Origin: Takakia lepidozioides
Taxonomy: Eukaryota > Plantae > Bryophyta
Assembly: GCA_030704615.1 (NCBI GenBank)
Contig: CM060731.1
Coordinates: 620,001-684,000 of the forward strand
Direction of reading: 5' to 3'
DNA: 64,000 nt
The notes beneath the pieces are model-generated. The model did not search any database. It was not told where the DNA came from and saw only the letters and a list, made by a program, of their open reading frames with translations. Positions 2,857-28,574 of the stretch are shown here, in pieces (position 1 is the stretch's first letter; the number at the start of each line of letters is the position of its first letter). A program made the position numbers and the translations under genes.

Positions 2857-3709
2857 ATATGCGCGATTTGTGCACTCCAGTTATAGACCATGCATGATAG
2901 TTTAAGGTGGTAACACTCCCTTCGCATTCCCATTAAGATATCATGCTTGGACACTGGATTTTATGATCAATTATGGAGTGCTTTCCTTTCAGCACCCTTT
3001 ATTCATTTGTTGTTGCAATTGGCTTTGGACCAACCCGTGTTGGTACCATTGCCATGGGTTTTGCGTGCAATGTTTTCTTGCCATGGATTCGGCACATGCC
3101 ACAAAAGGCCATCTAGACCATCCTCTGGAAATGCTCCAATGTTGTTTCAAACATCTCCACATTGCAATGGATACAACACTGACATTAGATGAGTGAAAGT
3201 GAGACTAGACCTCCAGCCAGCCGGCTTTCCCACATCAAATTGAAGGGGATCTGTAGATTATAGATAAGGGCTGTTGCCTTCTCAATGTCTTTTCCAATGA
3301 CCTCTGCAATGAACTGGGGTATAAGATCATTCAAATCACAAGTTTGAGCATCACGCACAAGCCACTTACGGGGATAGAGTTTCCAATGCGAACCATTGGT
3401 CTTTTATTGATAGCATTGTTGTAAAATACATGGACCAACATGGTCAATTTCGGGAATGACATATAGTACGCTTTCATGTACTATGTAAGCATGCAACTAT
3501 GTACCAGTGACGTGGCTTGTTCACCACTTAACTTGTTTGCCCATTCAGCCAGCTCCACATTGTCATGGATTTTGCATGCTGGATTGTGAGACCATCCACA
3601 CCGTCCTCTGGAAATGCTATCATGGGGTTTCAGCTATGTCCACATTTCCCTGGATTATGCCTGCACGAAGCAAGGCCAACTGCATTCAGCACCCTCCACT
3701 TTATTATAG

Positions 3710-4324
3710 TGTCGCGCACCTCACTTCGGTAAGCTCCCCTTCCAGTCATAGTTACTCGCTCCGATGCGCGCGCCTGACTCCCAACCTGGCCGCCCGGGCC
3801 AACTTGGAGCTTCGGCTGCTCACCAGGACATAACGGTCCCCCCTTCGCTTCCCACTAAACCCTCCACCTATTGGGCCTAGGAGAATTCCGTTTGGTAGAT
3901 GGCAGTCCGGAACAGCTCCCCACTCTTTGGTCGCTTTCCGGCTCGCTCGCTTACTCACTAGTTTTTTGTCACCAACGGGCTTGCACCGTTCTCGGGATCA
4001 CTACTCCCCTTATATATACTTCTATAGCTGTCCGCGGGGGTTTCACAACCAGCCATGCCATTTTATGGCGAACCACCACGAAAACCCTCGACTCCCGGTG
4101 ATGAGTCGCGGTGAGTCTTGGCCCACTCACCACGGCCCCTCTGGACCGTGATGAGTCCCAAGACTCCCCACGACTCCCACCACGAGGTCTCCCCCCCCAT
4201 GGTGAGTCCTATGCCACCCCCACTAAGTCCCGCTAAGCTACCACCACCCCTTGTGGAACCACCCCCACCGCAACCCGGTGTGCGGGGCTCCACCTAGTGA
4301 GCGCCTCCGCCTCCTTGAGTGCCT
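3710..4324 (-). repeat. 3' LTR of copy A, truncated and fused to integrase by an ~2-kb deletion
   Basis: Matches the other LTRs up to CTCCTTGAGTGCCT, then switches directly to integrase sequence (AIMVV) at a CCT microhomology. Confidence 0.9.
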
Positions 4325-5506
4325 ATCCCCCACCACCATGATTGCATCGAATCCTTTTGACAGCGGCATAGCAGTCATGAAATCCATCGAGACACTTTCC
4401 CAAGTCCCCTCTGGAATCGGCAAGGGTTGTAACAGCCCCGCTTGCTTTTTGTACTCGCTCCGGTTTTGTTGGCATGTGGTGCATGTCTTGACATACTCCT
4501 CTGCCTCCTCCCTCAGTTTGGGCCATAAATACTCTTTCTTCAAGAGTGCCGCAGTGCGCTTGGCTCCGCCGTGGCCCGCAAGCGGGCTATCATGGCATTC
4601 TCTCAAGAGGCTATCTCTGATCCCTCCTTTCGGCACGTAGAGACGCTTTTGCTTATACCGGAGCAGTCCATTTTGCAAGTGGAACTGCGATTTAACCCCC
4701 ATCCTCAAGTCCTACATCATGGACTTCGCCAGCTTATCCTTCCGGCAAGCCTTCCGGATCTTCCTTTGCAGCGCCGTCTCGCCCTTGTACACCAACAAGA
4801 GCTGCTGCTTTCTACTTAAAGCATCGGCCACCACGTTGTCTCGTCCCGGTTTGTACTGGATATCCACGTCGAACACCGCCAAAGTATCTTGCCACCTAAG
4901 TTGTTTTGGGGACAACTTGGGCTGCATGGCAAAATACTTCACCGTGACATTGTCCGTGAACACCTTCACTGGGTTGGAACCAACATAGTGGCGCCAAAGC
5001 TCAAGACAGTGCACCACCGCCTTCATCTCTTTCTCGTGCATCGGCCACCGTCGCTCCACTTCATTCAGTTTCTTACTTTCGTAAGCCACTGGGCGTCCAT
5101 CTTGCATCAGTACACCCCCAATCGCGAAGTCCGACGCATCTGTGTGTATCTCGAACGGACGATCGAACTCCGGGATTTTCAAGACTGGAGCTTCCGCCAT
5201 CCGCTGCTTCAATTCAGCAAAAGCTTGGCCACAAAAGATGTTCCATGCCCAGACTTTAGATTTACACAGAAGGTCTAACAGCGGCCCCGCAATCTTGGCG
5301 AAATTTCTCACATACTTCCGGTAATAGGAGGCGAGTCCTAGGAAGGATCGCACTCCCGGGACCGAAGTCGGAGGCTCCCAGTCCAAGATCGCCCTCACCT
5401 TTCTGTCATCCATTTTGACCCCATCCTGTGTAATCACATGCCCCAGGAACTCCACTTTTGTGACCCCGAATTCGCACTTTGAAGCTTTGGCATACAGCTT
5501 CCCTTC
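4325..5506 (-). pseudogene. Copy A pol: RT C-terminus, RNase H, integrase N-terminus
   Basis: [48 protein letters not shown]; nearly identical to 38140-39320. Confidence 0.93.
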
Positions 5507-5592
5507 TGTCGTGCGCATACATATCGCTACACAACTACATCGCTGTCCAAACCACACCACACATATATGCACAATAAAGTAGTCTGCCACAA

Positions 5593-5831
5593 TGATAAAC
5601 AAGCTAAAAAGGACACACACTCCCAACACAAGAAATATGAAATCCATCGCTATCACTCATTGAAACAGAAGTCGAGCCAGGGGCACCCCAAGCTATGAGG
5701 ACTCCACCCCACAACAACCTGTACCCCTACATAAGCACACTCAAACCTAAACGATGCAGGAGCTCGGTCGCGCAGGCTCAACTCGAGAGAGATGAGCTGC
5801 GCGACTGCCGCTCTCGTGAAGATAAGACGGA
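5593..5831 (-). repeat. Partial 3' LTR of the DNMT element (lacks its first 116 bp)
   Basis: Nearly identical to 15909-16147; joined directly to a truncated integrase (GQRAELLR). Confidence 0.88.
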
Positions 5832-8492
5832 GCAACTCTGCACGCTGCCCACATGCACGTGCCCACATGCACGTGCCCACACGTCCGGATCGTCAAGGTT
5901 AAGAACTACAGCAGCTTCTCTGCGAATGGATGCAGACAAATCTGGCTCTCGGCCAAAGAGCAGAAAGTATGGTGAGAAGGAGGCAAGTGATGCTTGCTTG
6001 CTGAACCTGTAGCCCATGGCTAACCAGGGTAACTGAAGGTCCCAATCTCCTAGATGTCCCTTCTGCAAGCCATACTTGCGCAAACCCCTCTTTACTGTCT
6101 GAACAACCCTCTCTGCCAAGCCATCGGCCTCAGGATGATCCCGAGAAGTGGTGCGGTGGTCTATCAAGGCCTTGTCACACAAAGCCTGAAACTCCCCCAA
6201 GAACTCTCTCCCTTGGTCCGTGAGTACCTCAGCTGGAGCACCGAATCGGCTAAGCACACAATCCAAGAATGCATACGCAGCTCCCTCACTAGCCTTATCA
6301 GGCAATGGAACCAACTCAATCCACTTGGAGAAGTGCTCCACCATCACCAACACATACTTGTTGTGACGCATGGTCAGTGGCAACGGCCCTGCGAAGTCAA
6401 GACTTCACTTGTAGCCCAATCCCATGATCGGAAGAGGGTGCAATTGTGGAGTAGGGGCGTTGAATGAAGCACGCACCCTGTCACACACCATGCACCTAGC
6501 CACAAATTGTTGCACCTCTGTGTGCATACCACGCCACCAATACTGCCCCTGCAGTAGGCTATGAGTGCGTCGCACTCCAAAATGCCCCAACTCTCATGGG
6601 CATGCCGCACTAACCGTGCCCGCTGTGTTGGGTGAGGCACAATCCTCACTCGACCATCCTCCCACACTCGGAGCAGGTGTGTCCCCTCCCACTTGAACCT
6701 CTTGGCTCGTTGTAGGATCCGATCCCTCTCCTTGGCAGTCACAGTGGTTGCCGTGTCTCCAGTGCGAAGATAGTCCAACACAGCTGAATCCTCATGTATA
6801 TCTTTGGCGCCACCTTGCTCATTGCTGGCCTCAGGGTCCTCAAACACTTGATCCACAGTCATCCCTGTTGCAGGTCCAACCTGGCCTTCCGCTGCCAAGA
6901 TACAAAGAAATGCAGATGCATGCCATCCGGGCACCATCTCCTCGTCCGTCTCACCATGCCACCGAGCTCCAGTGTCATCCTGCTGGCTCGTGCATGGATT
7001 GCGACTCAACCCATCTGCATTGCGATTGACCAAACCCGGTCGATGCACCACCTGGAAGTCATACTCTTGAAGGATGAGTGCCCACCGTGCAAGCTTCCCC
7101 GTAAGCTTGTCTGACTCCATCAACCACTTGAGTGGTTGGTGATCCGTGACAAGGGTGAAGAGATTGCCATATAGATAGCACCTGAAGTGCGCCACGGCCC
7201 ACACTGCAGCTAAGCATTCTCCCTCATATGAGCTATACTTAGACTCTGCAGCATTGTTCGAGCGGCTAGCATAAGCCACTACGAACTCTTTTCCCTCATC
7301 ATCCACCTGTGTGAGCACCGCTCCAAGCCCCAGCATGCTCCAATCTGTATGCAGCTGAAAAGGACGCCCCCTGATAGGTCGTCTCACGATGGGTGCCGAG
7401 GTCAACCTCGCCTTGAGCTCTTGAAAAGCTCGTTCTTGCTCATCTTCCCACTGCCACTCCTGGTCCACCTTGGTCAGCTTGGTTAGAGCCTTTGCAATGG
7501 CACTAAATCCCTTAACAAACCGTCTGTAATAGTTTGCTAACCCCATGAAAGCTCGAACTTGGCTCACATCCGTGGGGCGTGGAACCTATGCAATGGACTC
7601 TACCTTAGTCTGCTGTACCCCCAATCCTCCAGGATATATCATGTGACCCAGATACTCAATCTGGTTGTGGAAAAACTTGCATTTTCCCGGATGTAACTTC
7701 AATCTGTGCGCCCTCAAGCGCTCAAATACCCCCTGAAGGTGTCTCTCATGCTCCTCCACCGTAGCACTAAAGATGATGATGTCATCTATGTAGCACCGAG
7801 CAAACTCCACCCCTGCTAGAATCCTGTCCATGACTCTTTGAAACTCAGCGGGAGCGTTTTTTAAGCCCAAATGGTAAGAACCGCCACTGGTATAGGCAAT
7901 CCTTCCCGTGCTCATTGATCCCCCAGAATGTCGTCTTTTGTTTATCCGCCTCCTTGATCGGCAACTGGTGATATCCGGATCGTAAATCCAACGTGCTAAA
8001 GACCTTGGAATGCCCAATGGCATCAAAGATCTCCTCTGGTGTCGGCATGGCATACCTATCGGACTTGGTCTGACGATTTACAGGCCGGTAATCACCGCAC
8101 ATACGTCTCTCCGTCCAATTGCCATAGACATCCTTCTTAGCTGGCATCACTGTGGCTGAAGCATACTCTCCACCAGAGAGCTCCACCAAACCTGCCTCCC
8201 AGAGATCTTGAGTCCTCATCTGAATCAAAGACCTCTCCATGTCACTGTATCTATAGGGTCTCCGAAAGATTGGCGTGTCAGTGGCCAACTCAATACGGAT
8301 CTCTTGACCCTTCAGTGCTCCCAAGTCCTTCAAACTGAAGGCAAAGCAATTCCTGTAAGCCCTCAGGAACCGCCGTATACGTCGTCTCTCTCCTCCAGTG
8401 ACAATGGGTCCAATGTCAGGCTCCCAATTGTCCTCCGTAACTGCAACCTTAAGTCCAGTGGGCTTAGAGGTAGAGGACGCGTCCCGTGGTTG
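5832..8492 (-). pseudogene. DNMT element pol: RT, RNase H, integrase; frameshifts and stops
   Basis: [67 protein letters not shown]. Frameshifts near 7860, 6590 and 6400; TAG at 7586. Confidence 0.93.
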
Positions 8493-9884
8493 CTATGCTG
8501 CAACCTCTTGAGCAGTACTCCCTTCCTGCTCAGTCAATGACAAGGCCTCATCCTGCCCCATCATCTCATCATTGAGAACCTCCTCATCCCGAGAAGAATC
8601 CCCAACCTCATCCATCATAGCTGCCTTGGCTGCCAACTCCCTCTGAACCTCGAGCACCTCCCACATGTGCCATGGATGTCTACACCCCGTGGTCCTCACC
8701 GGCTCGCCCCCACTCGCTGCCTGTACCGTCTCGGTAGGCAGAGAGACCATCAAGGGAAGTGTACTCCGCACTCTACGTTGCTCAGCCATAGCCAAGCTGA
8801 CAATCCAGGTCAAGCAATTGAGATCCATTGCTTGCCCCAACACCTGACGACGTGATGCCTCAGAAAAAGAAGGCACCGCCGTGGTCCCAGTGGAAAACCC
8901 CATAGCCCGCTCTCGCTCGTCGGCATTAGGCTCCACTAACTGCTGCAACTGAGCATCCCACAGGAGGCCAGGTCCACCATCCCTAAAAGCATGGGAGCCT
9001 GGGAAGCTGAGCAATGTAGGTAATGCTGCTCGTGGGTGACCCATCCTGTTGACCACTGCCAACGGCGAACGGTCATTATGTCTCACACGTTGAGACTGCC
9101 TCCCTGTGTCCAAAATGCCATCCACGGTGAGGTGTGCTGGGCGCTGCACCCCATCAAATGCACGCTTGAGCAGTGCGGGTGGCATCAAGTTAGTCCACCA
9201 AAGCCGTGGACGATGAGCCCGTGACCCCACTGCAGCTGCATCCAGCAACACTGCTGACCCAAGCCACGACCGGACTTGATGCACACTGGCCATCACCCTG
9301 GCCCGAGAATCACCCCTCAGTGGCACATTCTCCAAGATGTATGCCGGAGATACAGCCTGATGAAGCTGCAAGTGGCGCAAAATCCGCACCATCTCCAAAA
9401 ACAGACCCGTCCTTGAGTCTCGCAATCCATTGCCATGCCCGGCTGATGAATGCCCTTGGCAGGGCCAACCTGCCACTACCAGATCAATGGAGCCAACCCG
9501 CTCCAAATCCTGCGCCCCCAGCAACGCAATGTCTGCTGGCAAGGCCTGCTGATATCCACGAACTGCAGACACCGGCAACAACTCAGGGTACTGCTGCACC
9601 ATCTGAGCAACATGGCGCAGTGAGACGCGTCGTGCAGTCTCATCCCTCTCCACATACAGGTAACGTCGAACTCGTACACCTGCCTGCAGCACTGCAGCCA
9701 ATCCAGTGCTGATCCCGCCAAACAAGTCCAGAAGGCATATGCCTTCATCCGGCCGCTGCCACACAAGAGGTGTGGTGTCCAATGACGACAACTGAGGTGG
9801 TCCTGGTGCAATACCCGCACTCTCATCCTCTCCTGACGGAACAAAAGCCTCTACCCAGGCTTGTTGTACCCGTCGATCGCTCAA
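8493..9884 (-). CDS. C5-cytosine DNA methyltransferase domain (DNMT3/DRM-like) inside the retrotransposon polyprotein
   Basis: Motif I LDLFGGI, II YVE, IV GWPCQG, VI ENV, VIII RPRLWW, IX ERAMGF, X RQVLGQAM, in canonical order. Same frame as RT, separated only by TAG 8493-8495. Confidence 0.93.
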   Translation of the reverse strand: MSDRRVQQAWVEAFVPSGEDESAGIAPGPPQLSSLDTTPLVWQRPDEGICLLDLFGGISTGLAAVLQAGVRVRRYLYVERDETARRVSLRHVAQMVQQYPELLPVSAVRGYQQALPADIALLGAQDLERVGSIDLVVAGWPCQGHSSAGHGNGLRDSRTGLFLEMVRILRHLQLHQAVSPAYILENVPLRGDSRARVMASVHQVRSWLGSAVLLDAAAVGSRAHRPRLWWTNLMPPALLKRAFDGVQRPAHLTVDGILDTGRQSQRVRHNDRSPLAVVNRMGHPRAALPTLLSFPGSHAFRDGGPGLLWDAQLQQLVEPNADERERAMGFSTGTTAVPSFSEASRRQVLGQAMDLNCLTWIVSLAMAEQRRVRSTLPLMVSLPTETVQAASGGEPVRTTGCRHPWHMWEVLEVQRELAAKAAMMDEVGDSSRDEEVLNDEMMGQDEALSLTEQEGSTAQEVAA

Positions 9885-12015
9885 AGGCTGGCCTAGCTGG
9901 CAGCTCCGTCAACCTGGCAGCTGCAGCTTGCCAGGGCGCAGCCGTGGCAGTCTTGACCCTCAAATCCAAGGATCCCTCTGCCACTACACCTCCCACTAAC
10001 TCCGCAGAAGATGAAATGACCTCCCCACTCTCACAGAGTGTTGCTGCTAGTCTGAACACTGCAGCTGGCCTTACCCCCGGCGTCGCAATCATTGTTGCCG
10101 AGAACAGTGGGGCCTGACACACAGAGGTGGCTGCCCCCAATAACACACCGGCCGCACTAGCCTTGGCAGCAGGAGTCAATGCTGCACGTGTAGCTCTCCC
10201 CAATGGCATAGTAACCTCCGCCTCGGTAACAGTCGGGCGAGAACTAGGTGCCATGGATGGCGTCGATACAGTCTCCCCCAATGTGAATGACTGAGGAAGC
10301 CTCGCCTGACGGCTTGCCTCCCCACGCTGTGGATCCAATTCCACCTCTACACCTCGTGGCTCAGGAACTCGTGCTGTTCCTCGAGTCACGGCTGCAGCAG
10401 ACTCCACCTGCTCTAGTGGTAGTGCTGCTCCGCACATAAATCCCATGCCTCCCATATCTCCTCCCTCAGGAGCAGGAGGTGGACCATCCCGCCTGGGAGC
10501 CGGTACCGCCTGGGCTATAGCCATGGCAGCGAGCTTCTGCTCTAGCTGCTGAAGCCGATTGGCCATGCCTTGGTTAACACCCTGACCTCCGCGTCCTTGG
10601 CCATGTGGAGCTTGCCCTTGGCCTGCACCTCGTGCCCGACCACCTCGTCCTCTTTGGGCTGGTCCACCTCGCCCCCGGCCACCATTGTTCCCTTGGAACT
10701 GGCCTGGGCGCAACTCAGGATGCAAGTCATAACACTGGGCATCTCCATGCCCATACTTGCCACAATGCCCACACTGCAACTGTGCAGGCTGTGCTTGTGC
10801 CGGCCTTTTGCCACTCTCTAGGCAATCTCTCTTGACATGGGGTCCTCCACATGTCCAACATATCACCCCTGGTTGCTGTTGGCCTGCAAAAGATGCCACG
10901 GGCCTCTGCACCTGAGGTCCCCTGTAAGCTCCATGGAACTTGGGCTGGGCAACCTTGCCCCCCTGACCACGCTGTTGGGCAGTCCCTTGTGCCTGTGGGC
11001 TGACAGCTGTGCCCCGTGCAGGCATGTCCTTGCCAAATCCAATTGTAACAACTCGCTCCTCCACCATGTTGAGCTCAATCCGCTCAGCCAGCAGAAACAC
11101 ATCTGCTAATGTGGGTTGGGCTGCTTGTAACTGGGTTGCATCTCGCACCCTTCTCTTGAGCTCCTTGTCCAGAATTCCATACCAAAACTGGATTGCCTGA
11201 GCTTCAGTAACCCCTTGGGTCACACTTATCAAGCGCCTCATACGAGTGTACGCCTCTCGCAGGCTCTCACTGGGTTTGCGCTGGAAGTCTTGCAAACTTC
11301 GCAGCTTCTCTGTCCGTACACCTTGGTAGTTCCTCCGCAACTCCTGGAAGAACTCCACCACCGGGTTGAATCTAGGCACATGTGTTGTCGTCGTGGCAGG
11401 AGGAGTAGTAGCACCTTTTGAACTGGTACCACCTGCAGAAGTACCAGCACTACTTGCTCCACTACTAGTGCTGGCAGTGGGAGCTATTGGTACTGATGCA
11501 GCTACTGGTCACGTCGTGCCTCGAGTAATGGAGACGTAGTCAGGTGACCAATACATCCTCCACTCCTCAATCTCTGCTTCATGTCCTCGCCTGAACTCGT
11601 GGTAATCGTCCATAGGCGGGCCTTCCAAATGCTGGAACAGTCCCTTCCACGCCATGAATAGGGTGAATAGCTGTGGATTGCGCATCTGCTGCAAATCACA
11701 CCAGCTGTCGAACTCGTGGATAAAGTCATCCAACTCAATTGTGCCCACAGCTCCAGACTACCTACGAGGCCCCTTGGTGGCTCCATACATCTCCTCCATG
11801 TCGTCCCACAACAATGGCGAATGAAAGTGCACACCTGTTGATGAAGCCTCCGAGTCTGTGTCTGACTCTACAGTAATTGAGGGTGGCGGTGAAGGTGGTC
11901 TGAACCGACTACCTCGTCTTGTGAACCCACTCTCACTGTTACTGCCTGTAGCTGTACTCCCCTCAAAACCTTTGGGTAACTCCGTAATGACACTCACAAT
12001 GTGCACCTCCTCCAC
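9823..12015 (-). pseudogene. DNMT element gag (capsid-like region plus two Zn knuckles), stops/frameshift in the N-terminal part
   Basis: QRKPSESLREAYTR, CWTCGGPHVKRDC, CGHCGKYGHGDAQC, RGG-rich tail. N-terminus ELDDFIHEFDSWCDLQQ is homologous to 25165-25485. Confidence 0.85.
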
Positions 12016-12534
12016 GTGACACTATAAGGCTCTAGTACTAATCTAATAGTGACACGGGTGGGCACCTGTTGCAGTTTAAGGGTCATATCCCAATGGCTCA
12101 GGGCACCTGCACCTGCATCCACCGCAAGAACTCCTATGGTTGGCTGGTCATCAACCCAGCCTCACCATAGAAGAAACACTGGTGGTCTTGCTGGTCATCA
12201 CTCCAGCCTCACCACCGACAGCACACTCTAGGATTGACCGGTGATCAAATCCGGCCTAATCCCTATGAAAGCAAGCGCCCACACAAAACCAACATGGCGC
12301 ACAGTCAAGCATGCAGGTGTTGGGGGGGATCCAAACACAAGAAATCAAAACATCAACACCCCCACACCAAAATCCAGCAGCAACGCTGATCCTGCAGAAT
12401 ATCCCAGCCCAAAACCCCGGACTGACTGGCCTCCACCAAGAGAGGCTTTGGCAACTACAAGTACAAGGTAATGAAAATAGTACAGAGATGGAGGGGAAGA
12501 ATAGAAGCCCGACCAAGCAAGATCTAATCCTGAT

Positions 12535-13284
12535 CTATGCTATCAACTGCCAGACTTCTCTCAAAGTGCCTCGCTCTGTATAATGGTAAGGTGTAGGAGG
12601 TATATCTATGTCCAGAAACCTGCCACTAACCTTGTCCCAAGCTACAGTAGCTCGCTCTAACCAACCCTCCTCCTCTTTCTGCCAGGTAGAGACAAAGCAA
12701 CACTCCGCTATCTCCCGCTCACTGAACACTAAAGAAAACAAAGGTAGGGTCTGATAGTCTCTCAACTCGAAAACTTTGAGACGGTTGCGGGTGTCTTCAT
12801 TGCGAATGACTGCATCGCCTTCAAACAGAACAAACTTGTCCTCGCTAATGAACCCCCGCTCGTGGTTGCCTTGTGCAGAGCGTGTCCGGCTGCAACACTG
12901 TCTAATTGCACAAACTTGTGCAGCTCCTGCTCCTCTGCTCCGGTACACCACGGCCTTGTGGCTGAACACCTTGGTCCCCGGGGCTGTCTTTGGCTGTGTT
13001 CCAAGCCTAGCTTTCACCCACTTTGGTATTTCACCTACAGCTGCAGAACTGCTGGCTCCAACAGAGTTCTGACTGTCCAAGGCGATATTGAGGCCCTCAA
13101 TGCCAATTACAGCAGTCTGTTGTCTACTGCTAATGCCTGACTCCTAGTATGCAATCAACTCGTCCAACTGTTCTCCACTCAAATCAGTCTGAGTTCCTTG
13201 GGAAACATAAATCCTGTCCCCTTGTGTGCACAGGCTAAGAGAAGAGACCTGCCCTTCAATTACGTCCTCATTTCCCCCAGCCAT
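12535..13284 (-). pseudogene. Accessory ORF of unknown function upstream of gag (~250 codons, one internal TAG)
   Basis: ATG at 13284 is in frame with ORF 12535-13080; one TAG at 13144-13146. Confidence 0.5.
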
Positions 13285-15472
13285 ACAAGGAGTACATCCA
13301 CAGATTTGTCTATCATATAGACCAGCTCAGGTTCTAGAAACAGAATTGTGGATCTTTCATGGCACACTCACATTCTAAAAATTCCATAGATTTTTAGCAG
13401 AGTCCTAAAATCAAAAACCAGGTCTAGGTAGGTAGATTTCCCCTTTCTGCAGCTATCCCCTCAAAAACTGAGTCAAACGGAGCTCATTTGACAAAGATAT
13501 GACCAACCAGGCTCTGAATCCTTTAAATTAGATCAAAAGGTTTTTTTTTTTTTTTTTTTTTTTTAACACCAAAACGTTCTCACCATTAAAAACTGTTCCC
13601 ACGTCTGTTGGGATTCACTGCAGGTTCCCTGTTCCCTGGTTCCCTAAGAATTCCTTAGATTCTTAACTCAATCTCTCCAATGTGGAATTACCATGATAAA
13701 GGTAATGTCCTCATTGGTATGCCAGATTTTCAAAACGAGAACACCTTGTTGAAGCTGCTGCTATCAATGCCATCTTATCGTTGTTGTATGAGAGCCCATG
13801 TCTACTGCCCTGTCAGAGTGACCACAACCAGGATGGCTTTCCGCAACCATTCATGTACTGGGCAAATACATATCAACCACAACAATAAGACCATCACGTT
13901 CAATTTGTGATTTCCAAGGTGGTGCTAATACCTTCATCGACCATTGGCATATACCCCAAGAGCAGCCTAAAGATCGCCATAGCAGAGAGGGTTACAGTAT
14001 ATGCTGGTGCTGTAAACGCTCAAGCTCTCCAGGGCCTCAAACACCACTCTAAACTGGCTTAGGGTGGTTATTACATCCCCATGACCAGGGACATGCACAG
14101 AACCAAGGCGATGGGATGAAGCTGCCCCATCTTGAGAACTGATAGCGGGCTTCCAACTGAACGCAAAATCAAAAGGGAGAAGCTCGGCCTGATGTACCAC
14201 TTCAAGGACCAAGTGATATAATTGGACCTGCACCTGCTGGTGGCCGAAATGCCAAATGTACTACAATGTTTTTTTTTTTCCTTTTTGTCTCACAATTTCT
14301 AACTGCAACTCCGGATCAAAGCACCGCTGGTCATGTATGTAGAGCCTCACCTGGTCTTCCTTCGCTAGGCTGCAATGTTAATATATGAGATCACCCCGTC
14401 TCACAAACATTAATGCCGCCACTGTCGCCTAGACCTGATGCAAGACCTGATCGCAAAGCAGGCTACGCGGCTGGTCCTTCCCTGTGTACATCTATCTCAA
14501 GTCACACACACCGCATCTCATGCTTCTACTGCTGATCAGCTTTTCCTTGCTGGATAGCAGCTTATGCACTTGCTAGAAAATCTAGCCTGACCCTGTCCAT
14601 CCATTTGCTAAGATAAGAAAGCTTGCTTCCTCGCAATGTACAGCTAGACAACCTCACATCAACCAGCCCACAACTACTCCTTCATAGTGGCTGGCTATAG
14701 TCCAATTTGACAGTGTACTTGAAAAACGGGCCGTGTTTCTTGTCTTTCCACACCCACTCCCCGGAATCAAATTGGCGAAGGTAACTGGTGCCTGAAGGAA
14801 CCAATGCAGGAAGGGTTTGGTGTGTAGGCCGTTCACGAGAGAAGGGTTCACCTGGCCTATTACTAAGCAGAAAACCCTGATAGCATAGTATGGATTTTCC
14901 GGAATGTCAGCAAAGATTGGCCCGAAAAGGGAACCTGAGGGCCTGACCTTGAACTTCCAACCCTGCAGCAAATGGCCATTGCGAGAGACAGCAAACAATG
15001 CAGACTTGCTGCCTTGCAAATCGGAACTAACCCAAGGAAGCCAGTCCCACTCATGCTGGCGGAATATCGCTGGTCACCAAATCCCAGCCAGCGCTTTACC
15101 TTCGGTGGAACAATCCACTCACAAAGAATAGGCAGAGCAGAGCAGAGGAGAGGCTAGAGCAGAGGCTGATAGGTGGCAGACCTCCTAGCTCTCCAGCAGC
15201 CCGCCGTAGGTTGAACCTTCCACCCTGAGCCTAGCATGCTTGAAGAAGGGCGGGAATCTTCCAGCTCACTCCTTCTTCCTAGCCTCTACCAGCACCAGCG
15301 CAGGTATAAAACGGCTGTTAAGTAATGCTCAGCAGCCACCTGCAGTTGAGATAACATCAACTGCACCTTCTCCAATTGGGTTTATCAGCAACCTCATTTC
15401 CATTCGGCTGTGGCTCGACCTACTGTCGACTGCGAAAGACCATCGGATGCGCTGCAACACTACATCCTGAGC

Positions 15473-15585
15473 TTAGTCGCAAAGACTGAAACCCATGTCA
15501 TCATCAGACTCCTCCTTCGCTTCCTCCTTTTCTCCGGCAGGTGCAGCAGCAGCACCTCCACCAGAGGAAGCCACCACAACCAGGG
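15473..15585 (-). pseudogene. Captured C-terminus of a 60S acidic ribosomal P-protein (P2-like)
   Basis: Translates to VVVASSGGGAAAAPAGEKEEAKEESDDDMGFSLCD*; plant P-protein consensus is EESDDDMGFSLFD*. Confidence 0.88.
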
Positions 15586-15896
15586 ATGACGCCACCCCAA
15601 ACTGTTTGCACTTCGTGATCCAGCCACTCCCGACTGTTTTGGGTCCGAATCCAAAAGTTTACACGAGTCTCGTCTCCCTCCGTCCTAGTGAAAGAGAGTA
15701 GGGAAGCCAACTATCAAAGTCTTCAACCTCCACACCTCTTGGTTTTCAAACTCACGAGCAGAGACGACAACTAAATCTGCGCGCACAACCCATAGAAACA
15801 GCAGGGCCAGATGGACTCCCGCCCCAAGATATATATTATAATAATGCTAAAACAAACATTGTATCTAGCTTAGCACCAGCACACTAGATAACGCTG

Positions 15897-15909
15897 ATCT
15901 CTCTCGAGT
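15897..15909 (-). promoter_or_regulatory. Non-tRNA primer-binding site complementary to the element's own LTR
   Basis: Abuts the CA end of the 5' LTR; no TGG; exact 13-nt reverse complement of 16097-16109. Confidence 0.7.
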
Positions 15910-16263
15910 GATAAACAAGCTAAAAAGGACACACACTCCCAACACAAGAAATATGAAATCCATCGCTATCACTCATTGAAACAGAAGTCGAGCCAGGGGC
16001 ACCCCAAGCTATGGGGACTCCACCCCACAACAACCTGTACCCCTACATAAGCACACTCAAACCTAAACGATGCAAGAGCTCGGTCGCGCAGGCTCAACTC
16101 GAGAGAGATGAGCTGCGCGACTGCCGCTCTCGTGAAGATAAGACGGACCAGGTGTCAAACTAAACTTGACACCTGATTTAACACTTGACCTAAATCCAAG
16201 TGTTAAATACAAATAACTAGTTTTATTCTAGCTGTTTTCACACTGTGCTTATTTAACTTGACA
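15909..16263 (-). repeat. 5' LTR of the DNMT element (355 bp)
   Basis: Sense strand TGTCAAG...TTTATCA; both boundaries also seen in the relative at 24824-25161. Confidence 0.88.
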
Positions 16264-18624
16264 CTTCCCGCAATTTTTGGAACACCCTTTTCAGGTGCTC
16301 CAGGTGCTCCTCCTTTGTTTTCGAGTACACCAAGATGTCGTCGATGTACACGATCACAAAGTCATCCAACCACTCCTGGAAAAGGCTGTTCATCAGCGTG
16401 CTAAATGTCGCTGGTGCATTGGTGAGCCCAAAAGGCATCACCAAGAACTCATATGAACCATACCTTGTCCTGCACGCGGTCTTCTCCTCATCTCCTTCCG
16501 CCACCCGAATTTGGTGATAGCCGGAGCGCAAGTCGATCCGGCTGAAATACTTCGCTCCTGCCAACCGATCGAAGAGGTCATCGATCCTTGGCAAAGGGTA
16601 CCGGTTTTTGATAGTCACCTTATTCAGAGCCTTGTAATCGACACACATCCGCAGCGTCCCATCCTTCTTGTCTGCAAATAGCACCGGGGCTCCGTAATGT
16701 ACCCCTTTGACATTAGATCCTTGAGTTGAGTCTTCAGCTCGACCAACTCTCTGTGGCTCAACCGGTAGGGCGCCTTGGCAGGCGGTTCCGATCCCGGTAT
16801 CACCTCAATCTTGTGATCAACTCTTCTTCGCGGTGGCAAGCCGCTTGGCAAATCCTCCGGCATCACATCATGGTATTTCTCCAAAATCCCCTTGATCCAA
16901 TCTGGGCTCGGCTCTCCATCGCCTTCTCCCTTCACTTCTCTAATGTAGAGCAAAAACTGGGGCTCGTGTGCCTCCTCCACAGCCCACTCCCTTGCTGATA
17001 GAAGGTTTATTTGCCCTCCCACGGGTTTGGGCGTTTCTGAAACTCGTAAGACCTCGCCACCATTCCAACATGGCAGCGTGACTACCCTCTTGCGGCCATC
17101 TATGACCGCTCCGGATTTGCTCAAAAAGGTCATTCCCAAAATGAGATCCACTCCATCGATCTCGCAGACGGTGAAGTTCTCACGTCCCTCCCAACTCCCC
17201 AGTTGAAGAGGAACATCGAACGCCAACCTCGTCGCCAATTGCGGTTCTCCTTTGGCAGAACGCACCTCAATAGAGGCCCCTATGTCAGTTGTCGGGAGTC
17301 CCAACTTTTGTGCCGTTGCCGGTGTCATGAAGGAGTGCGATGCTCCTGTGTCCACCAACAATGACACGTTAGTTCCAGATATTATCCCATCCACGAACAA
17401 TAAGTGACTCCCTTTACGCAATGCGCCAGTTTCCTCATACAACTCACAAGAATATTTGCCTACCTTGCAAGTCCTGGCGACTACCGCTTCCACCAAGCGA
17501 CTGATGGTATCTTCCGACAGCTCCGTGGTTGCCCGAGTCATGTTCAATTGTCGGGGTTTCGTGCACTTCTTGGCCATGTGCCCGGGCTCTCCGCAATTGA
17601 AACACACTCCATCAAAGGTCGCCTTCTGTCCGCCATAAGCCGCTCCACCCGCTTTTCCTTTCGAAGCACCGGGTGCCGCCTTGACGTGTGAAGGCCCTCC
17701 CTTCGATTTCCACGTGCCATTGTTGCCGCGTGGCCTATCCCACTTCTTTTCCGGTCGGAAGGAGTCACCTTCCCGCCGGGTCTTCTTGTGGTTCAGCTCC
17801 GTACGGCCTTGTCTTTCACCCCTAGGGACATCTGAAAAACATTCAGCCCTCTCAATTGCCTCGTTCAAAGTCTTAGATGGCTTCTCCTCCAACTTCCGCC
17901 TGGCCCATGTGGCCAACCCCGCCACAAAGTTGAAGACCATTTCTGGTTCCGCCATATCCGCGACTTCAAGCAACAGCACATTGAAAGCCTGGACATATCC
18001 CCGAATGTCATCTGTTTGCTTCAAATTCCTCATCTTGTCCCCGGCAAGCCAGGACGCATTGAGGGGCACAAACTGTCTCTTCATCAATTCCTTGAACCCA
18101 CTCCAGTTCAAGGTTTCCGGACTTGGACCTCGGTCGTGAAGGCGTTTCTGCCACCATTGTTGAGCATAGCCCCTCAAATAGGTGGGAGCCACTTCCACCC
18201 GATCCTCGTCACTCAACTTGGCCGCCCGGAAGTACTGCTCTAGCTCCAGGAGCCAGGTGTTGAGTGCCTTCCGATTTCGGACGCCCTCGAAGGTGCCGGG
18301 TTCCTTAGGCTTCACTTTAAACTTTGCCTTAGTGGAAGTGGCATTAGCCGCCTTCAACACGTCTTTCAACGTCCCGCCAAACTGTGCCAACAACCCTTCC
18401 CAAAAGGCTGCCGGCATGGGAGGCATCTGTTGGTTGGTCGGAGCTCTCACGGATTCCTTGGGCTCCGACTCCTCGGATTCCTCCCGCTCTTGAGCGGCCT
18501 CGCTTTCAGAAACCTGCGTCGCTTCCTCAAACGGCCGCTTCGGTGACACGTCGCCCCCATCGGGCTCACCAGGATCATCATCTTTTGGGCCGTTCCGCTT
18601 TCGCTTTGGCTTGCCCGACCCCAT
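16264..18624 (-). pseudogene. Copy A gag-protease-RT N-terminus
   Basis: [35 protein letters not shown]; 19-bp deletion near 16698 relative to copy B. Confidence 0.93.
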
Positions 18625-18665
18625 GATGAGGCCAATCCCAAGGACGATCGCGTACTGAATTCTAA

Positions 18666-18677
18666 GCTCTGATACCA
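18666..18677 (-). promoter_or_regulatory. tRNA-iMet primer-binding site of copy A
   Basis: TGGTATCAGAGC on the minus strand, 2 nt from the LTR. Confidence 0.92.
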
Positions 18678-18679
18678 AG

Positions 18680-19330
18680 TGTCGCGCATCTCACTTCGGT
18701 AAGCTCTCCTTCAAGTCATAGTTACTCGCTCTGATGCGCGCGCCTGACTCCCAACCTGGCCGCCCGGGCCAACTTGGAGCTTCGGCTGCTCACCGGGACA
18801 TAACGGTCCCCCCTTCGCTTCCCACTAAACCCTCCACCTATTTGGGCCTAGGAGAATTCCCTTTGGTAGATGGCAGTTCGGAACAGCTCCCCACTCTTTG
18901 GTCGCTTTCCGGCTCGCTCGCTTACTCACTAGTTTTTGGTCACCAACGGGCTTGCACCGTTCTCGGGCCACGAAAACCCTCGACTCCCGGTGATGAGTCG
19001 CGGTGAGTCTTGGCCCACTCACCACGGCCCCTCTGGACCGTGACGAGTCCCAAGACTCCCCACGACTCCCACCACGAGGTCTCCGCCCCCATGGTGAGTC
19101 CTATGCCACCCCCACTAAGTCCCGCTAAGCTACCACCACCCCTTGTGGAGCCACCCCCACCGCAACCCGGTGTGCGGGGCTCCACCTAGTGAGCGCCTCC
19201 GCCTCCTTGAGTGCCTTGGGCACTCAAGGGTGCTTCAGCCCCCCCATACCTATCGCTGCCGCTGCCCCCACCACAGGGGCAGCCCCTCATGTGTCCCGAC
19301 CCCCTGCCCTCAAGGCAAAGGGCCGCGACA
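18680..19330 (-). repeat. 5' LTR of copy A (~70-bp internal deletion)
   Basis: TG...CA; matches the copy B LTRs. Confidence 0.93.
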
Positions 19331-22389: not shown

Positions 22390-23005
22390 AAAGTATATAT
22401 ACCCAGAATTTGGCCATGGGGCTATTCGTTGGAAGGTAAGCTTAAGAGCCAAATAAGCGAGAAAAGAGATGCGTGTGAGCGCCTTGCAGAGTGTCAAGCA
22501 GAGGCGATGTTTGATGAGCATCCGCCAGCTCTCTGTTCGCGTACTTTGCGAGCACTGCCTCAGCATGCTTGGCATGGCGGTGCAGCAATAAGGCTGCCTC
22601 CATAGGGCCAATCAGGTTCAATCTAGTGGCAGCAGACAATCCGTCCCGCAGATTCACGGACAAGAAGGCTCGCTGGGAAGTGATTGGATCCATACCCAGG
22701 ATCCCGAAAATATACCCAAACACTGTGGCGTGATGCCCATAGGCCCTTGCAGGCGTGCCCTTCGTGGATGCCCGGATCTTTAACACCTCTTGAGCAACTT
22801 CTTGAAACACAGTGCCTGCTAATCGTAGGAGGGCTTTTCCTTGGCCCAGGGATGCACATCTCACCACATGATTTGTAAGGACTGCGTGTAACGTGCAATC
22901 TAGTTCTGTGCTCTACAACCGGCTTGCAGCGTACACAAACGGTAGCAACAATGCCCCTGCATTTCCACAGAAGTAAGGGCAAACTTCTCTATCGGTGGTC
23001 AAACA
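22390..23005 (-). pseudogene. ureF: Partial duplicate of ureF (3' two-thirds)
   Basis: Near-identical to ~30320-30945 with small deletions; N-terminal FPTGGFAHS motif absent. Confidence 0.9.
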
Positions 23006-25161
23006 TGCCGCAGCTCATGCTTCTCCTTCTGATCAGCTTCTAACCAACTTCTGATCGACCAACTTTGCCTCATAATTTGCCCCAGATCAGTTCAAATCTG
23101 CTGATTGCACATATCCCTGTACATTCTTTAACACGTATTAATTAAGTGGCTCCTTAATAGTGTCACCGCAATGCAAGCAGGCTGAGACTCAAGGAAGCCA
23201 AGTTCACCATACCTTCCAGTACCTTCAGCAATCTGACCTCTGACAGTATATAGGTCCCTCTCCAACCTTTCAAAGTGAGCCAGATAGCTATTTTCTGTTT
23301 CAATATGTCGAATCACATATGCATGCTATGACTCCATCCGCCATTACTCGGTGGCATCTCCATACCCGCGACTACCCCATCTTTCTTCTTTCGGCAACTT
23401 GTTAGTTCATCACTCAACAGTATCGGTGTCAGACACCAAGTGTGAAGTGGCTGTCTATGCACAGAGTGTTTGCCACAAACTAGCCGCTACAGCCCATTGG
23501 CGTCGCGTTGGCTATGATCTGGAGAGCAGTGTTCAATTGTGATGGTCGAGTTATTAGCTGGGTAAGGAACCATTCGATTGGAATTAAGGCTGACCTGTCC
23601 AACTGGGATTCCATCCACTATAATAATAGTAAAAGTCTACTCATGAGCCGCTGATCATGCACATGGCTGCTAGCATCAGACCCACAACCACCATGGCCAC
23701 ACTCTGGTTGCCTTGATCTCTCCCATCGTCCACGTAATCGAACTCCTTCACCTTCACACCACTAGACTCAACACCGCTCAACATCTGTGCCCGTGAATAC
23801 AATAGAGATGCGAAAGAGACCGCAGATCAGAATGAGTATATTACCAAGTCACAATCTGGCCCATATTTACAAGCTTTCTTTTCCAGGCAACCTAGCGACG
23901 CGTTACTGGTTATTTTCCAGCCCCAGTAATCCTTGCGATGCAGCTCTGGCATACTAGCAACGAAGCAGATGTTGTGAACTAGGTGTATACTACAAGAAAA
24001 CCATCCAGGCAGCTCCGCACATATGCTCAAGTGTGAAGAAACTCTATTGTAGAACTTGTCATACTCGAACCCAGTGATGGTGTTATAACAGCCGAAAGCA
24101 TGCAAGGAAAAATCGGCAACCACGAAAAATCAACCCGAGCACAGAAAAGGAGGGACTTCGGGAGCGTTTGAGCTTCAACTTCAGGACTCCATTAAAAACA
24201 AGCCCTATCCACAGCACACCTGAGTGGCATGCTCGACGTACTATTCAGCCAACAGTACCGTGTTTATTCTTCTGAAATGATCCGCTCACATTTCGATGTG
24301 CCACACTTGCATCCTCTCGGCGTTCTTGCCCCTGTCATGCTAACCCATAAAGCAACGGCAACAGCTGCTTCTCACAAGGCCTTTAACCAAAACCATAACC
24401 CGGAGCACTTTTCCGATCGTTCTGCTTCCCAGAAACCTCACTCAATACAGATTAATTACCTGATTTGCAGCTCCATGGTTAGAGCATATGTCTGTGGTTT
24501 CCATTCACAAACCAGTCGTGCCAACGACGGCCAGACACACAGTTGGCAGCTGAAGTCAGCCTTATGATGGCAACAACGATGACAAAGCTGATAAGCAGTA
24601 GAAGGCTTCACAACGTTTTCTAAACATCGCTTAAGTGGCCAAACTTGACATCTTTCTAACTGAAGATTACCTGAACACTAATAATCATTTCTTTGTCTCC
24701 TGTTTGTCACAAACATAATCTATAGACCATAATTTTCTTCTCTCACTTTCAAAACAAAAACCACATGTGCTAAAACTAAACTCACATTGGTACTCACATA
24801 TGCAAGCTAACATCTCTCTCGAGTGATATGAAAACTAAACTCACACTGTTTGATGGTACAAAAACATGAAATACAACACAATCACTCGTTAAAATAAGAG
24901 TCGAGCCATGGACACCCCCAGCTATGGGGACTCCACCCCACAATATCCTACTCTCCCTCCATAAGTACACTCAGATGTTAAGCAGCGAGGGAGCTCGGTC
25001 ATGCAGGCTCAACTCGAGAGAGATGAGCCGCACGATTGACGAGCTCATCAAGTGTCAAGCTAAATTTGACACCTGACAACACTTGAACTAATTCCAAGTG
25101 TTAAATACAAATAACTAGATTTATTCTAGTTAGTTTCACACTGTGTTTATTTAACTTGACA
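23006..25161 (-). mobile_element. 5' part of a diverged relative of the DNMT element (LTR 24824-25161, self-complementary PBS 24811-24824); left boundary uncertain
   Basis: LTR homologous to 15909-16263 with the same termini; abuts the gag fragment of a third relative. Confidence 0.65.
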
Positions 25162-25945
25162 ACACCATAAAAGGCGTAAACAGTTGTGGATTGCGCATCT
25201 ACTGCAAATCACACCAACTATCAAACTCTTGTATTAAATCATCAAGCTCGATGGTGCCCACAACTCCAGAGTACCGACGTGGCCCCTTGGTAGCTCCATA
25301 CATTTCCTCCATAGTGTCCCATAACAATGGCAAGGAAATAGCTTGCACATGTGGCGTGGATCTGAATCAGAACCCTCCTCAGAAGATACAGAAGGTGAAG
25401 GTGGCCTAAACCGCACACCTCGTCTCGTGTACCCACTAGTATCGCTAGTGCTCATACCGATACTTCCCTCAGCAACTAGTAGCACCTCTGTGATAAAAAC
25501 TCACAACCACACATGTTGTAAACCTGTCTCTAATACCCATTTCCACGAGGTAACCGGGTAGAGAACTTGTTGCAGCTAATGGCTTAGACTACTAGGTTCA
25601 TAACATAAACCTGCACCTGCATCCACCGCAAGCACTCCTATGGTCTGCTGGTCATTAACCCAGCCTCACCATAAGATAAACAATGATGGTATGACTGGTC
25701 ATCACCCCAGCCTCACCACCGACGGCACGCTCTAGGATTGGCCGGTGATCAAATCCGGACCAACCTCCTATGAAAACAAGCGCCCACACAAAATTGACAT
25801 GGCGCACAGTCAAGCATGCAGGTGTAGAGAGGATCCAAACACAAGAAAATCAAAATAGTAACTCCCCCACACCAAAAGCACTCCACATTTTCGCTCCTGC
25901 AAGATACCCCAGCCCAAACCCGGACTGACTCTTGCCTCCACCTAC
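25162..25945 (-). mobile_element. Fragment of a third relative: gag N-terminus and conserved leader
   Basis: GYTRRGVRFRPPSP and GTIELDD homologous to 11650-11950; non-coding block similar to 12105-12440. Confidence 0.8.
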
Positions 25946-28574
25946 AGAAAGGTTTTGGCCTACAGAGAGGGTGGAAGATTACAAGGAAGAGAGACTAAAG
26001 CAAATCCTATCACAGCAATATGCTCTCATCCCACTACCATATCTCCACACTCTTTTGCTTAAGCAATAGACAAGACCTTTCAAGGATCTCTCAAATAACT
26101 CTCTAAGAGCCCTCAAGATGTCCCTCGAACAATCTCACTAAGGCTCCCAAAGCTTAATCCAAACAATACACCAAGGCCCCAAGAGCTTGCCAAATCTCGG
26201 CCCTGAAGGACCCCAAATAGTCCTTCAACAAGTCGCCAAAGACTCCTCAAACTCGCCAAATATTGGCCTCCAAGGACCCCAAATAGTTCTCCAAACAGTC
26301 ATCCAAATACCCTTTCAAGAGCTCCTCAGAGTGTCGTCCAAAAGCTCCTCAAAGGACCCCAAAGATCCTCTAAACAATCCTCCAAAAGGCCTATATTGTC
26401 TTTATATGTCACTATGTTTCAGGCCTATAGTGATCGTTCCCACACTTTGGTGACCGTTCCCATGAACCTAGGGTTTCATGTGCATCTCATGCTAGGGTTT
26501 GTGCTTCCTTGAGCTTCATGCTTGCTCTCCTCAAGCATCCATGACTTCTATGAGATACCAAGGCAAACTACCTTGATCTTCTTCACCTCAAGCCACAACC
26601 AAGCTTGGTTCCATCTCACCTAGCAATGCATTTGCCGCACAACAAGCTTCACTTCTCTTTGGAGCTCAAGAATCAAGCTTTTTACCTCATTTGATAAGCA
26701 ACCAAGTCTTGCACTCATTCATGTGCTTTTCTTTGGCCATCCACATACATGCTCTACTCGTGGCTTCTATGTGTTGTTTCACCAAGCATCAATACATCTC
26801 CATCTCATGCAAAAAGGAAGATTCAAGTCCCTTCACTTGCTAGCTCAAGAGCCGTGCTCTCCTCAAGCTTAAGGTTGAAACCCCAACTCAAACATATGCT
26901 CTATAAGTGTTTTTCCTTCACCTAAGTGGAAACCAACCATTTTCCTTCTTTCTTGCTCTCCAAGGCTTGAAAATAGAAGCCTCAATGGGCTGAAAACATG
27001 CTCCATATAAGCATCACCTCATACACAAAGGAATGAACTTGTCCCCTTCACCTTCTAGCTCTCCTCAAGCTTGAAGTTGGAAGCCGCATTTGGAAAGCAT
27101 GCTCCACACATGTGCCACTTGCTTGGTCAACCACTTGCTTCACCAAGAGCAATCCAAGAACTCATAACACTATCAAAAGCACTCTCTTCTAACGCCTTAG
27201 CTTGCTTGTTTGTCAACCAAATGAAACCCCACTTGGCTTCATTTCACCATGGATAAAACAACCACTAGTTCTTAGCTTCTCTTGAGCTATTCAATGTTCA
27301 TCAAGCTACCTTTGTTGTACTCTTTCTATGGTGTCTCCAACCTAAGCATGTGCCGCTCTTTGGTTTCTCTTTCACACCATGAACAACTAGAGTTTGATCT
27401 TGAAACCCTAGTGTCTATCTTCTCCACACACAAGACGCTTCTCTTGTGATGCAAGAGCTCTTCTCCAAGCTCTCAAACCCTTAGTGCACATGCAAGCCCT
27501 CCTTCTTGCAAAACCATGCAAACTTTGTGATATGAGAGCTCCACCTCTATAGAATAAAGTAATGCTTCTCAAACCCTAACATCCATGTTCTCTACACCAC
27601 AAGGATTTTCCTTTGCAACACCTGCAACACCTTGCAACTCAAGAGCTCTCTACCAAGCTCTTTTCAACACACAAGTGCTAAGCTAATCCTTACGCACTCA
27701 CAAACATAAGGTGATCTTCTTCTAGTGAAAAGAGTTGAGAAATGAGAGAAGTGAAAGACCATCAAACCACTCTCAAACATGAAAGAAAACACACTAAGAC
27801 CACACCCTAGTCTTTCAAGTGTGAATCCACTCCATCACTCATATATAAGTCAAGCCAAGGGCGCCTTTGCTAAAGGAATCCACCCTACTAACCCTCACAC
27901 ACTCTCTCTCTCGAGCCCAGACTATGGAGGCTCAACTAGAAGAAGATGAGCCTTCCCAAGCTTCACGTGGAGATAACCCACTCCACAACCCAAGTGAGAT
28001 TAGTCATCTCACTTGGCACATGGAACCTAATGAAGTCCCAATGCACAAAATACAAATATAAATATTCAAAATATCCTAGTTAACTAGAAGTGGGTAATTC
28101 TAGTTAATCATGACTAAAACCATGACATCCCAAACAACGGCCCCAACGCTAGTGCTTGGTATGGTTGGAAAGGCCTCAACGAGGAGGGATGCACGGACGT
28201 GGTCTCACGATTTTTGGACTTGTGGTGTGGGAGATGTGGAATTCCAAGTACTTTTGGTCGCAGGAAATTCACAAAAAATAGTTATGGTAACTAGTAAGTG
28301 AGTAAGTAGTAAGTGAGAGGGAAAGAGAGCCCCGACTCTCTTTATGTACCCTCACAGGGGCGGTGGGACCTTCTAGAATCCCGCCCAGCCCTCGGCACTG
28401 GGACCCTTCTAGAAGGTTGCCTGCCCACGTGCACTTCTCCAAGCCTACGGCTGCTGGGTGTCACTGCTGCACCATCCATGTATTAATGTCCATGTATTAA
28501 TGTCCCCTGACATAGGGTGTGCAGTTTTCAGGCCCTTTCTAAGCCCTCTTCCCGTTCCTGTGGGCCCTAGTTGA

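Follow-up and report, generated by a model that had tools for sequence, protein, structure and literature searches.

A dead copy of a DNMT3-bearing Ty3/Gypsy retrotransposon in Takakia lepidozioides and its family in the green lineage

A defective Ty3/Gypsy insertion in the window

The window, that is, the whole stretch of 64,000 nucleotides analysed here, contains at 5507-16263, on the minus strand, a defective 10.76-kb insertion of a PHD-type Ty3/Gypsy retrotransposon with the ends TGTCA...CGACA. The insertion interrupts the RT gene of a chromodomain Ty3 element, and its empty site is seen in contigs of the same organism that join 5502 directly to 16264. From its 5' end, the following parts were distinguished.

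16264..16267, no strand: upstream copy of the 4-bp target-site duplication (TSD), from the element junctions
15909..16263, minus: repeat A1, 355 bp, TG...CA, read as the 3' part of a B+A LTR; 98.8% match to 5593-5834
16098..16109, minus: predicted self-primer, a 12-nt segment within A1 complementary to the primer-binding site
15897..15908, minus: primer-binding site immediately after A1, from the sequence, putatively of the self-priming type
13668..15896, no strand: low-copy passenger DNA in the 5' region between primer site and gag, about 2.2 kb, approximate limits from contig depth
9879..11799, minus: gag, with premature stops at 11760 and 11511; 48% identity to residues 1-603 of Marchantia protein P0003, and a weak PF03732 match below the cut-off
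9878..9879, minus: deletion joint, about 220 codons including the aspartic protease missing; P0003 residues 604-815 unmatched, with the protease motif LLDSGAQP at 636
8766..9758, minus: DNMT3-like C5 cytosine methyltransferase core, motif order unrearranged, catalytic Cys in GWPCQ; from motifs, PF00145 and fold match
8487..8495, minus: conserved stop TAG (8495-8493), then CAA CCA, a CAR-YYA readthrough context; from the sequence
7586..8492, minus: RT, YIDD at 7792, with a frameshift near 7857 and a stop at 7586-7588; PF00078
6593..7585, minus: RNase H and start of the integrase zinc-binding region, with a frameshift near 6592; PF17917/PF17919
5880..6404, minus: integrase core, shortened; PF00665
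5593..5834, minus: remainder of repeat A2, 242 bp; 98.8% match with A1
5507..5592, minus: repeat B2, 86 bp, ending GCACGACA, the right end of the element; same terminal motif as B of relatives
5503..5506, no strand: downstream copy of the 4-bp TSD, from the element junctions

A preliminary description of this DNA, made from the sequence alone, had given the element LTRs and a TSD. The TG..CA ends, the 4-bp TSD and the empty site agree with this, but there is no LTR pair, the repeats standing as A...A-B. A1 lies where A lies in full-length relatives. These retain IN-PHD-PPT-B-A-B at the 3' end, and by comparison the window copy has lost the integrase C-terminus with the PHD finger, the polypurine tract (PPT), B1 and the first 113 bp of A2. 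The loss of about 220 codons with the protease at 9878/9879 puts gag and DNMT out of frame, and this deletion is private to the window copy, since the contigs of all four runs (X1, X5, X6 and X7) diverge there, with loose ends either side of 9878. With its protease deleted, its frames shifted and its integrase tail lost, the copy is dead and cannot express the DNMT domain.

In run X1, depth is 790-1830 in bins 13668-15637 and about 0.65-1.3 million across the coding region, which is several hundred times deeper than the passenger stretch and therefore present in many copies, depth itself being no copy number. The passenger DNA includes, at 15479-15640 on the minus strand, the C-terminal part of a gene for a 60S acidic ribosomal protein (PF00428). 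A 202-codon open frame (12535-13143, minus) lies in the element's multi-copy 5' leader and has no match in Pfam or among the fetched loci of relatives.

Other features in the window

The preliminary description had also counted two further relatives in the window, from which it argued for a diversified lineage. These proved to be a single pair of adjoining remnants of the same lineage:

24812..25161, minus: A repeat and primer site, no DNMT; sequence match
25162..25964, minus: 5' leader and 5' fragment of gag, no DNMT; sequence match

A tblastn search for a second DNMT within the window gave none, no B end was found for the remnant at 24812-25964, and it is sequences from elsewhere that attest to diversity. 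Among named sequences, the host UreF gene of the window is closest to that of the moss Ceratodon (66%), ahead of Calypogeia (55%) and of vascular plants (56% at most), which by itself points to a probable moss host. A partial duplicate of this gene, 96% identical (22433-23005 and 30356-30945), lies some 1.8 kb downstream of the second A repeat and is possibly another host fragment linked to the DNMT element family.

The chromodomain Ty3 element is present in two copies that are 95-97% alike, one at 3708-5506 plus 16264-19330 (minus), which is the target of the DNMT element, and one at 34994-41960 (plus). Both are CpG-rich (0.82-0.89 vs 0.54 for the window). A long PPR gene with an E motif lies at 45571-48766 (plus), with a DYW-ending frame in a second ORF and a frame break near 48370; it is an organellar RNA-editing factor. 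Frames at 875-2262 (minus), read by eye, resemble a remnant of a CACTA/En-Spm transposase.

Identity of the methyltransferase domain

The domain is carried by a frame at 8493-9908 of the minus strand. The six catalytic motifs that had been described as intact and in order were all located, from 9728 to 8826: DLFGG (9728-9714), GWPCQ (9470-9456), LENV (9335-9324), AHRPRLWW (9218-9195), ERERAMGF (8918-8895) and LGQAM (8840-8826). Motifs I, IV, VI, VIII, IX and X are thus present in the unrearranged order, which differs from that of DRM, and the catalytic Cys, Glu and Arg are kept. The PF00145 profile, proposed as a check, matches above its cut-off (E 1.9e-11). Among PDB sequences, DNMT3A ranks first (1e-9), before DRM (4e-5) and HhaI (5e-4), and a predicted structure with a pLDDT of 91.7 has only DNMT3 enzymes (DNMT3A/B) as its top Foldseek matches (E 1e-19, TM 0.72/0.83). 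By sequence and predicted fold, the domain is therefore nearest to DNMT3A/B and not to DRM, DNMT2 or bacterial enzymes.

Host plant DNMT3 proteins, such as PpDNMT3a/b, have the same DNMT3-type catalytic domain in unrearranged order; they carry a DUF3444 (PMC6453930), whereas the element domain lies inside a retrotransposon polyprotein and has no DUF3444 by Pfam. The DNMT of the family is very likely an active enzyme. The corresponding Klebsormidium domain gave no activity in yeast, a result termed inconclusive by its authors (PMC5890265).

Distribution, architecture and selection

By protein searches, 57 relatives of greater and 205 of near length were found (120 of the latter were listed). 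Named relatives came from Calypogeia, Marchantia polymorpha, Marchantia paleacea, Riccia, Sphagnum, Closterium, Chromochloris and Monoraphidium, and ferns, lycophytes, hornworts and seed plants contributed none of the named matches listed. One domain, 51% identical (P0076), is labelled as a Candidatus Obscuribacterales MAG protein; its contig measures 2.4 kb and is probably of plant origin, wrongly binned with a bacterial genome. A profile search gave 640 clusters at E <= 1e-30, and looking up 20 of the best 150 added Klebsormidium, Scenedesmus and Cymbomonas.

The elements follow two architectures. In bryophytes and streptophyte algae the order is Gag-PR-DNMT-RT-RH-IN(-PHD), while in the named chlorophytes the DNMT stands between RNase H and integrase (RT-RH-DNMT-IN-PHD); among 114 representatives with a full domain, 11 belonged to the first, 76 to the second and 27 were assigned to neither. 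At the family level, the order gag-PR-RT-RH-IN with a DDE integrase is that of Ty3/Gypsy elements. REM1 of Chlamydomonas is likewise a PHD-bearing Gypsy element. Elements of the clade are often nested in or adjoin one another (L077 2524-3677, L079 6429-11539, L070 14619-17204, L035 1-2025 and L073 2958-5072), and L070 contains a second, divergent IN-PHD element that also ends in PPT-B-A-B.

In an alignment of 115 cluster representatives less than 50% identical, the catalytic residues are nearly invariant (Cys 114/115, Glu 115/115, and the two Arg 115/115 and 114/115), and the Pro preceding the catalytic Cys is often Glu. The dN/dS ratio, another check that had been proposed, is 0.075-0.22 for the DNMT between lineages where computable, with dS near saturation, which indicates purifying selection. 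Within a young Sphagnum-like group, the median is 0.58 for the DNMT vs 0.36-0.41 for RT, RH and IN, the pattern expected of decaying copies with a somewhat less constrained DNMT. Comparing the window copy with others of its organism, 14 of 27 core differences are synonymous vs 26% expected (p 0.003, from the best 40 of 70). Of 49 single-frame DNMT matches, just 7 are free of stops.

The preliminary description had named absence of the domain from other copies as grounds for rejection; the domain is present, and in the same position, in elements of mosses, liverworts and streptophyte algae. It is extremely improbable that the DNMT is a chance capture of a host-gene fragment or a decaying passenger: the window copy is dead and a piece of a host gene does lie in its 5' region, but we rejected this reading on the shared position, the 640 clusters, the purifying selection between lineages and the retained catalytic residues.

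In a DNMT tree, Marchantia and Sphagnum group together to the exclusion of Calypogeia and the window copy, so that paralogy or transfer is in play. In a further quick, unrooted tree, which like the first held retroelement domains only, the Klebsormidium sequence stands at the base without a resolved placement.

The Klebsormidium protein, GAQ93235.1, matches the profile at E 3e-94 and has the order Gag-PR-DNMT, as in the window family. We infer that it is KnitGypsy-Dnmt3, which was described from Klebsormidium nitens with Gypsy domains and DIRS-like repeats and interpreted as captured within the lineage of K. nitens (de Mendoza et al. 2018, PMC5890265); a later paper restates the finding for 'streptophytes' (PMC12344493). 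Like the window family, KnitGypsy-Dnmt3 has Gypsy domains, an unrearranged Dnmt3-type domain with catalytic residues, purifying selection and, by comparison with the figure legends of PMC5890265, DIRS-like A-coding-B-A-B repeats, for which the available parts of that paper propose no mechanism. It differs in that its DNMT lies in the Pol ORF with RT and RNase H, whereas the window family has a conserved stop between them, and it represents one algal lineage, whereas the window family is found at high copy in mosses and liverworts.

The claim of a land-plant retrotransposon with its own C5 methyltransferase, akin to the Klebsormidium element, is thus borne out. The preliminary description knew of no characterised land-plant family, and our literature search likewise found no report of a DNMT-bearing Gypsy element in land plants; Repbase, Dfam and REXdb sequences, subscription journals and bioRxiv supplements were outside its scope and may hold the family.

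A conserved stop codon between DNMT and RT

The DNMT frame of the window copy ends at TAG CAA CCA, in frame with RT. The preliminary description had placed the domain between gag and RT in the RT frame; position and frame hold, but DNMT and RT are not one open frame because the TAG at 8495-8493 separates them. The stop is also present in an independent contig of this organism, which has five differences, all at other positions.

We surveyed the stop in 80 metagenomic loci, 59 of which, together with the window, had the DNMT end and the RT start and were deduplicated to 49 clusters. TAG or TAA followed by CAR was present at the homologous site, in the RT frame, in 44 of the 49 (window included); the background frequency of stops is 1.2% of codons. 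A 45th candidate, TGA-CAT, was not counted, its site not being homologous. The five clusters lacking the signal comprise one without a stop, one with TAA-TAA, one with TAA-AAA and two that are decayed or shifted. Six clusters, drawn from at least four divergent lineages including that of the window, have the exact CAR-YYA, and the largest group has CAA-CCC, a 5/6 match to the signal, followed by an in-frame ATG. DNMT-to-RT spacings are 270, 315, 333, 393 and 396 nt, every one a multiple of 3. Several Marchantia, Calypogeia and metagenomic proteins terminate at about this position, and in Closterium proteins such as P0446, DNMT and RT are continuous.

CAR YYA after UAG is the readthrough signal of TMV, and the same stop and hexamer are found in the window and at least three other lineages (PMC2754532). 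The TMV case differs in that the largest group of the window family has CAA-CCC, the stop follows a Gag-PR-DNMT polyprotein and readthrough is here predicted. On the strength of the stop and its context, we consider it probable that Pol is made by TMV-type readthrough, which is the best reading of the conserved stop. A leaky stop would yield abundant Gag-PR-DNMT and a rarer Pol (RT-RNase H-integrase-PHD), placing protease and DNMT at the abundance of Gag and RT and integrase at a few percent. A search for RNA folds after the stop found none that is strong in four of five cases tested (z -0.2 to -1.3), with z -2.8 in L006. No report of this readthrough in such elements was found in the literature search.

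An unlikely alternative is that Pol comes from a spliced or separate mRNA, or from reinitiation, with the TAG doubling as a 3' splice site. Ogre elements splice between gag-pro and rt. In the Sphagnum-like group, the TAG is preceded by a short run of T and followed, two codons on, by an ATG, and Tca2 bypasses its gag-pol stop in non-canonical ways (PMC2194720). The TAA variants could have spoken against an acceptor had they formed a transposing subfamily. That possibility was rejected, since TAA copies are unclustered on the tree (8 changes vs 8.3 when shuffled); TAA is therefore probably post-insertion decay and active elements probably all carry TAG, which could then double as a splice acceptor. 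Against splicing, the stop is in frame with both DNMT and RT over five different spacings, the conserved bases past it are CAR-YYA and not a typical acceptor context, and no ATG follows it in the window, L006, L026 or L044.

Possible substrates of the methyltransferase

Readthrough, as the favoured account of the stop, bears on what the enzyme may do. Packaged in the particle at Gag-like abundance, the DNMT would likely methylate cytosines of new cDNA, and its position, its retention and its predicted abundance fit such cDNA methylation inside the particle. The preliminary description had suggested that a packaged enzyme could methylate new cDNA or the insertion site, of which the former is plausible. 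We see about an even chance that the element's own cDNA is the substrate.

CpG across codon boundaries is 0.20-0.39 in the element vs 0.76-0.78 in the chromovirus family in the window, with a single family on either side of the comparison. The window's host genes are CpG-poor too (0.27 and 0.55), so that the depletion of the element does not discriminate. Mutations of the Sphagnum-like copies follow host silencing (CHG 0.24, CG 0.19, CHH 0.06), and their spectrum held no self-methylation signature distinct from it. Such data leave some room for another role of the DNMT, be it methylation, jointly with the PHD-integrase, of host chromatin or the target site, modification of element RNA or structural DNA binding. 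The CpG poverty that window host genes share with the element and the lack of a separate signature agree with a role of this kind, whereas the near-invariant catalytic residues speak against a purely structural one and the element is far poorer in CpG than the chromovirus family; we regard these roles together as rather less likely than cDNA methylation.

Taken as a whole, it is reasonably probable that the window holds a dead copy of a green-lineage PHD-type Ty3/Gypsy family that encodes Gag-protease-DNMT3 up to a conserved stop, with likely low-rate readthrough into RT-RNase H-integrase-PHD, so that the DNMT would be packaged at Gag-like abundance and likely methylate new cDNA.

Permuted ends and a possible route of integration

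Full-length relatives are arranged as TSD-A-primer site-coding-PPT-B-2 nt-A-B-TSD, and the window copy as A (355 bp)...A (242 bp left)-B (86 bp). This is not the canonical LTR layout: the 5' end has A only and the 3' end PPT-B-A-B. PPT-B-NN-A-B is present in 8 Sphagnum-like loci and, wholly or partially, in the divergent L026, L044, L070 and L072. Contigs of the window organism join a B end to an A start across two bases, and the ACA-NN-TGTCA junction at B|A is conserved across lineages. A 4-bp TSD was found in all seven independent full insertions, two of which have a changed TG, and none of the seven is NCGN, the target preferred by Phygy, a non-chromovirus clade of REXdb (PMC6317226).

Complementarity between the primer site and an internal segment of A extends over 12 nt in the window and 9-16 nt in four of five relatives tested; the fifth, L048, had no match of at least 6 nt. 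Self-priming elements with comparable complementarity are described (PMC6317226), and minus-strand synthesis is quite likely self-primed here, judging by this complementarity.

Because the PPT stands before B, not A, and the primer site follows A, the real LTR would be B+A and the insertion a circular permutation of B-A-internal-B-A. Reverse transcription bounded by PPT and primer site would yield B-A-internal-B-A; its two cDNA ends would be joined, giving an A|B joint; and the DDE integrase would insert from the abutted CA-NN-TG at the upstream B|A boundary, leaving A-internal-B-A-B. The arrangement of the repeats tips the balance slightly in favour of this route. The A|B joint is variable, with primer-site sequence in L031/L033 and PPT-end sequence in L069. 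Such remnants at a joint are what end joining of linear cDNA would leave (cf. two-LTR circles), and ACA-NN-TGTCA resembles two abutted integrase ends of the kind on which IS3-family DDE enzymes act.

A plain two-LTR circle, with two equal B|A sites, predicts the other permutation (A-B-A-internal-B) also; 5' ends preceded by B were observed in 0 of 17, an asymmetry that is unexplained. The single permutation is accounted for if A-B-A-B ends arise without a free circle, through an extra late end-to-end template jump and trimming at the outermost CA-NN-TG sites. This requires an additional step of which there is no direct sign, and joints with primer-site and PPT remnants resemble end joining, though a jump could leave them too; we find it possible, and clearly less probable than insertion from end-joined cDNA.

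Eleven loci end in a single B. Such ends were considered as one-LTR-circle insertions and rejected as evidence, L056 (B only) being the same locus as L068 (B-A-B); they give no independent support because B-B recombination or assembly collapse explains at least one.

The split direct repeats of Ngaro, PAT and VIPER elements have the same order, A1-coding-B1-A2-B2 (PMC9210276, PMC6681497), and SymbioDIRS-Dnmt3 also carries a Dnmt3, one shown to methylate CG de novo (PMC5890265). These elements use a tyrosine recombinase, whereas the integrase of the window family is a DDE (rve) enzyme with PHD, and the family further shows a PPT, a self-primer site and 4-bp TSDs. Pfam matches of the family include no recombinase domain, which sets it apart from DIRS elements. 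Gypsy-7a_cRei of Chlamydomonas is, like the window family, a Gypsy element with a PHD finger, and its left LTR lacks the last 8 bp of the right one, a small asymmetry in the same sense; the likeness is by description only, and the description lists no DNMT (PMC9940879). No Gypsy element with split or permuted repeats was found in the literature search.

A more speculative and, in our view, improbable scenario would unite ends and enzyme. An ancient green-plant Gypsy clade, with hundreds of lineages and copies in Marchantia, would integrate by DDE chemistry from end-joined cDNA through CA-NN-TG, and a packaged, Gag-abundant DNMT3 would methylate that cDNA, CG methylation beside the first-made junction confining the integrase to the other one.

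Significance

New here are the spread through land plants and chlorophytes, the conserved stop of the leaky type and the anatomy of the permuted ends. DNMT3-bearing retrotransposons are extended from one alga to mosses, liverworts and many green algae. The permuted ends and TSDs point to an integration route unlike that of the textbook linear two-LTR cDNA, and detection tools that rely on paired LTRs may misplace the ends of these elements. In bryophytes, counts of DNMT genes and methylome studies may also be confounded by DNMT3 copies that reside in transposons. From the conserved stop, one would expect the enzyme to be an abundant component of the particle and not an appendage of Pol. Marchantia, whose methylation mutants wake transposons, carries the family, and the question of why a transposon carries its own silencing enzyme is therefore testable in a genetic model.
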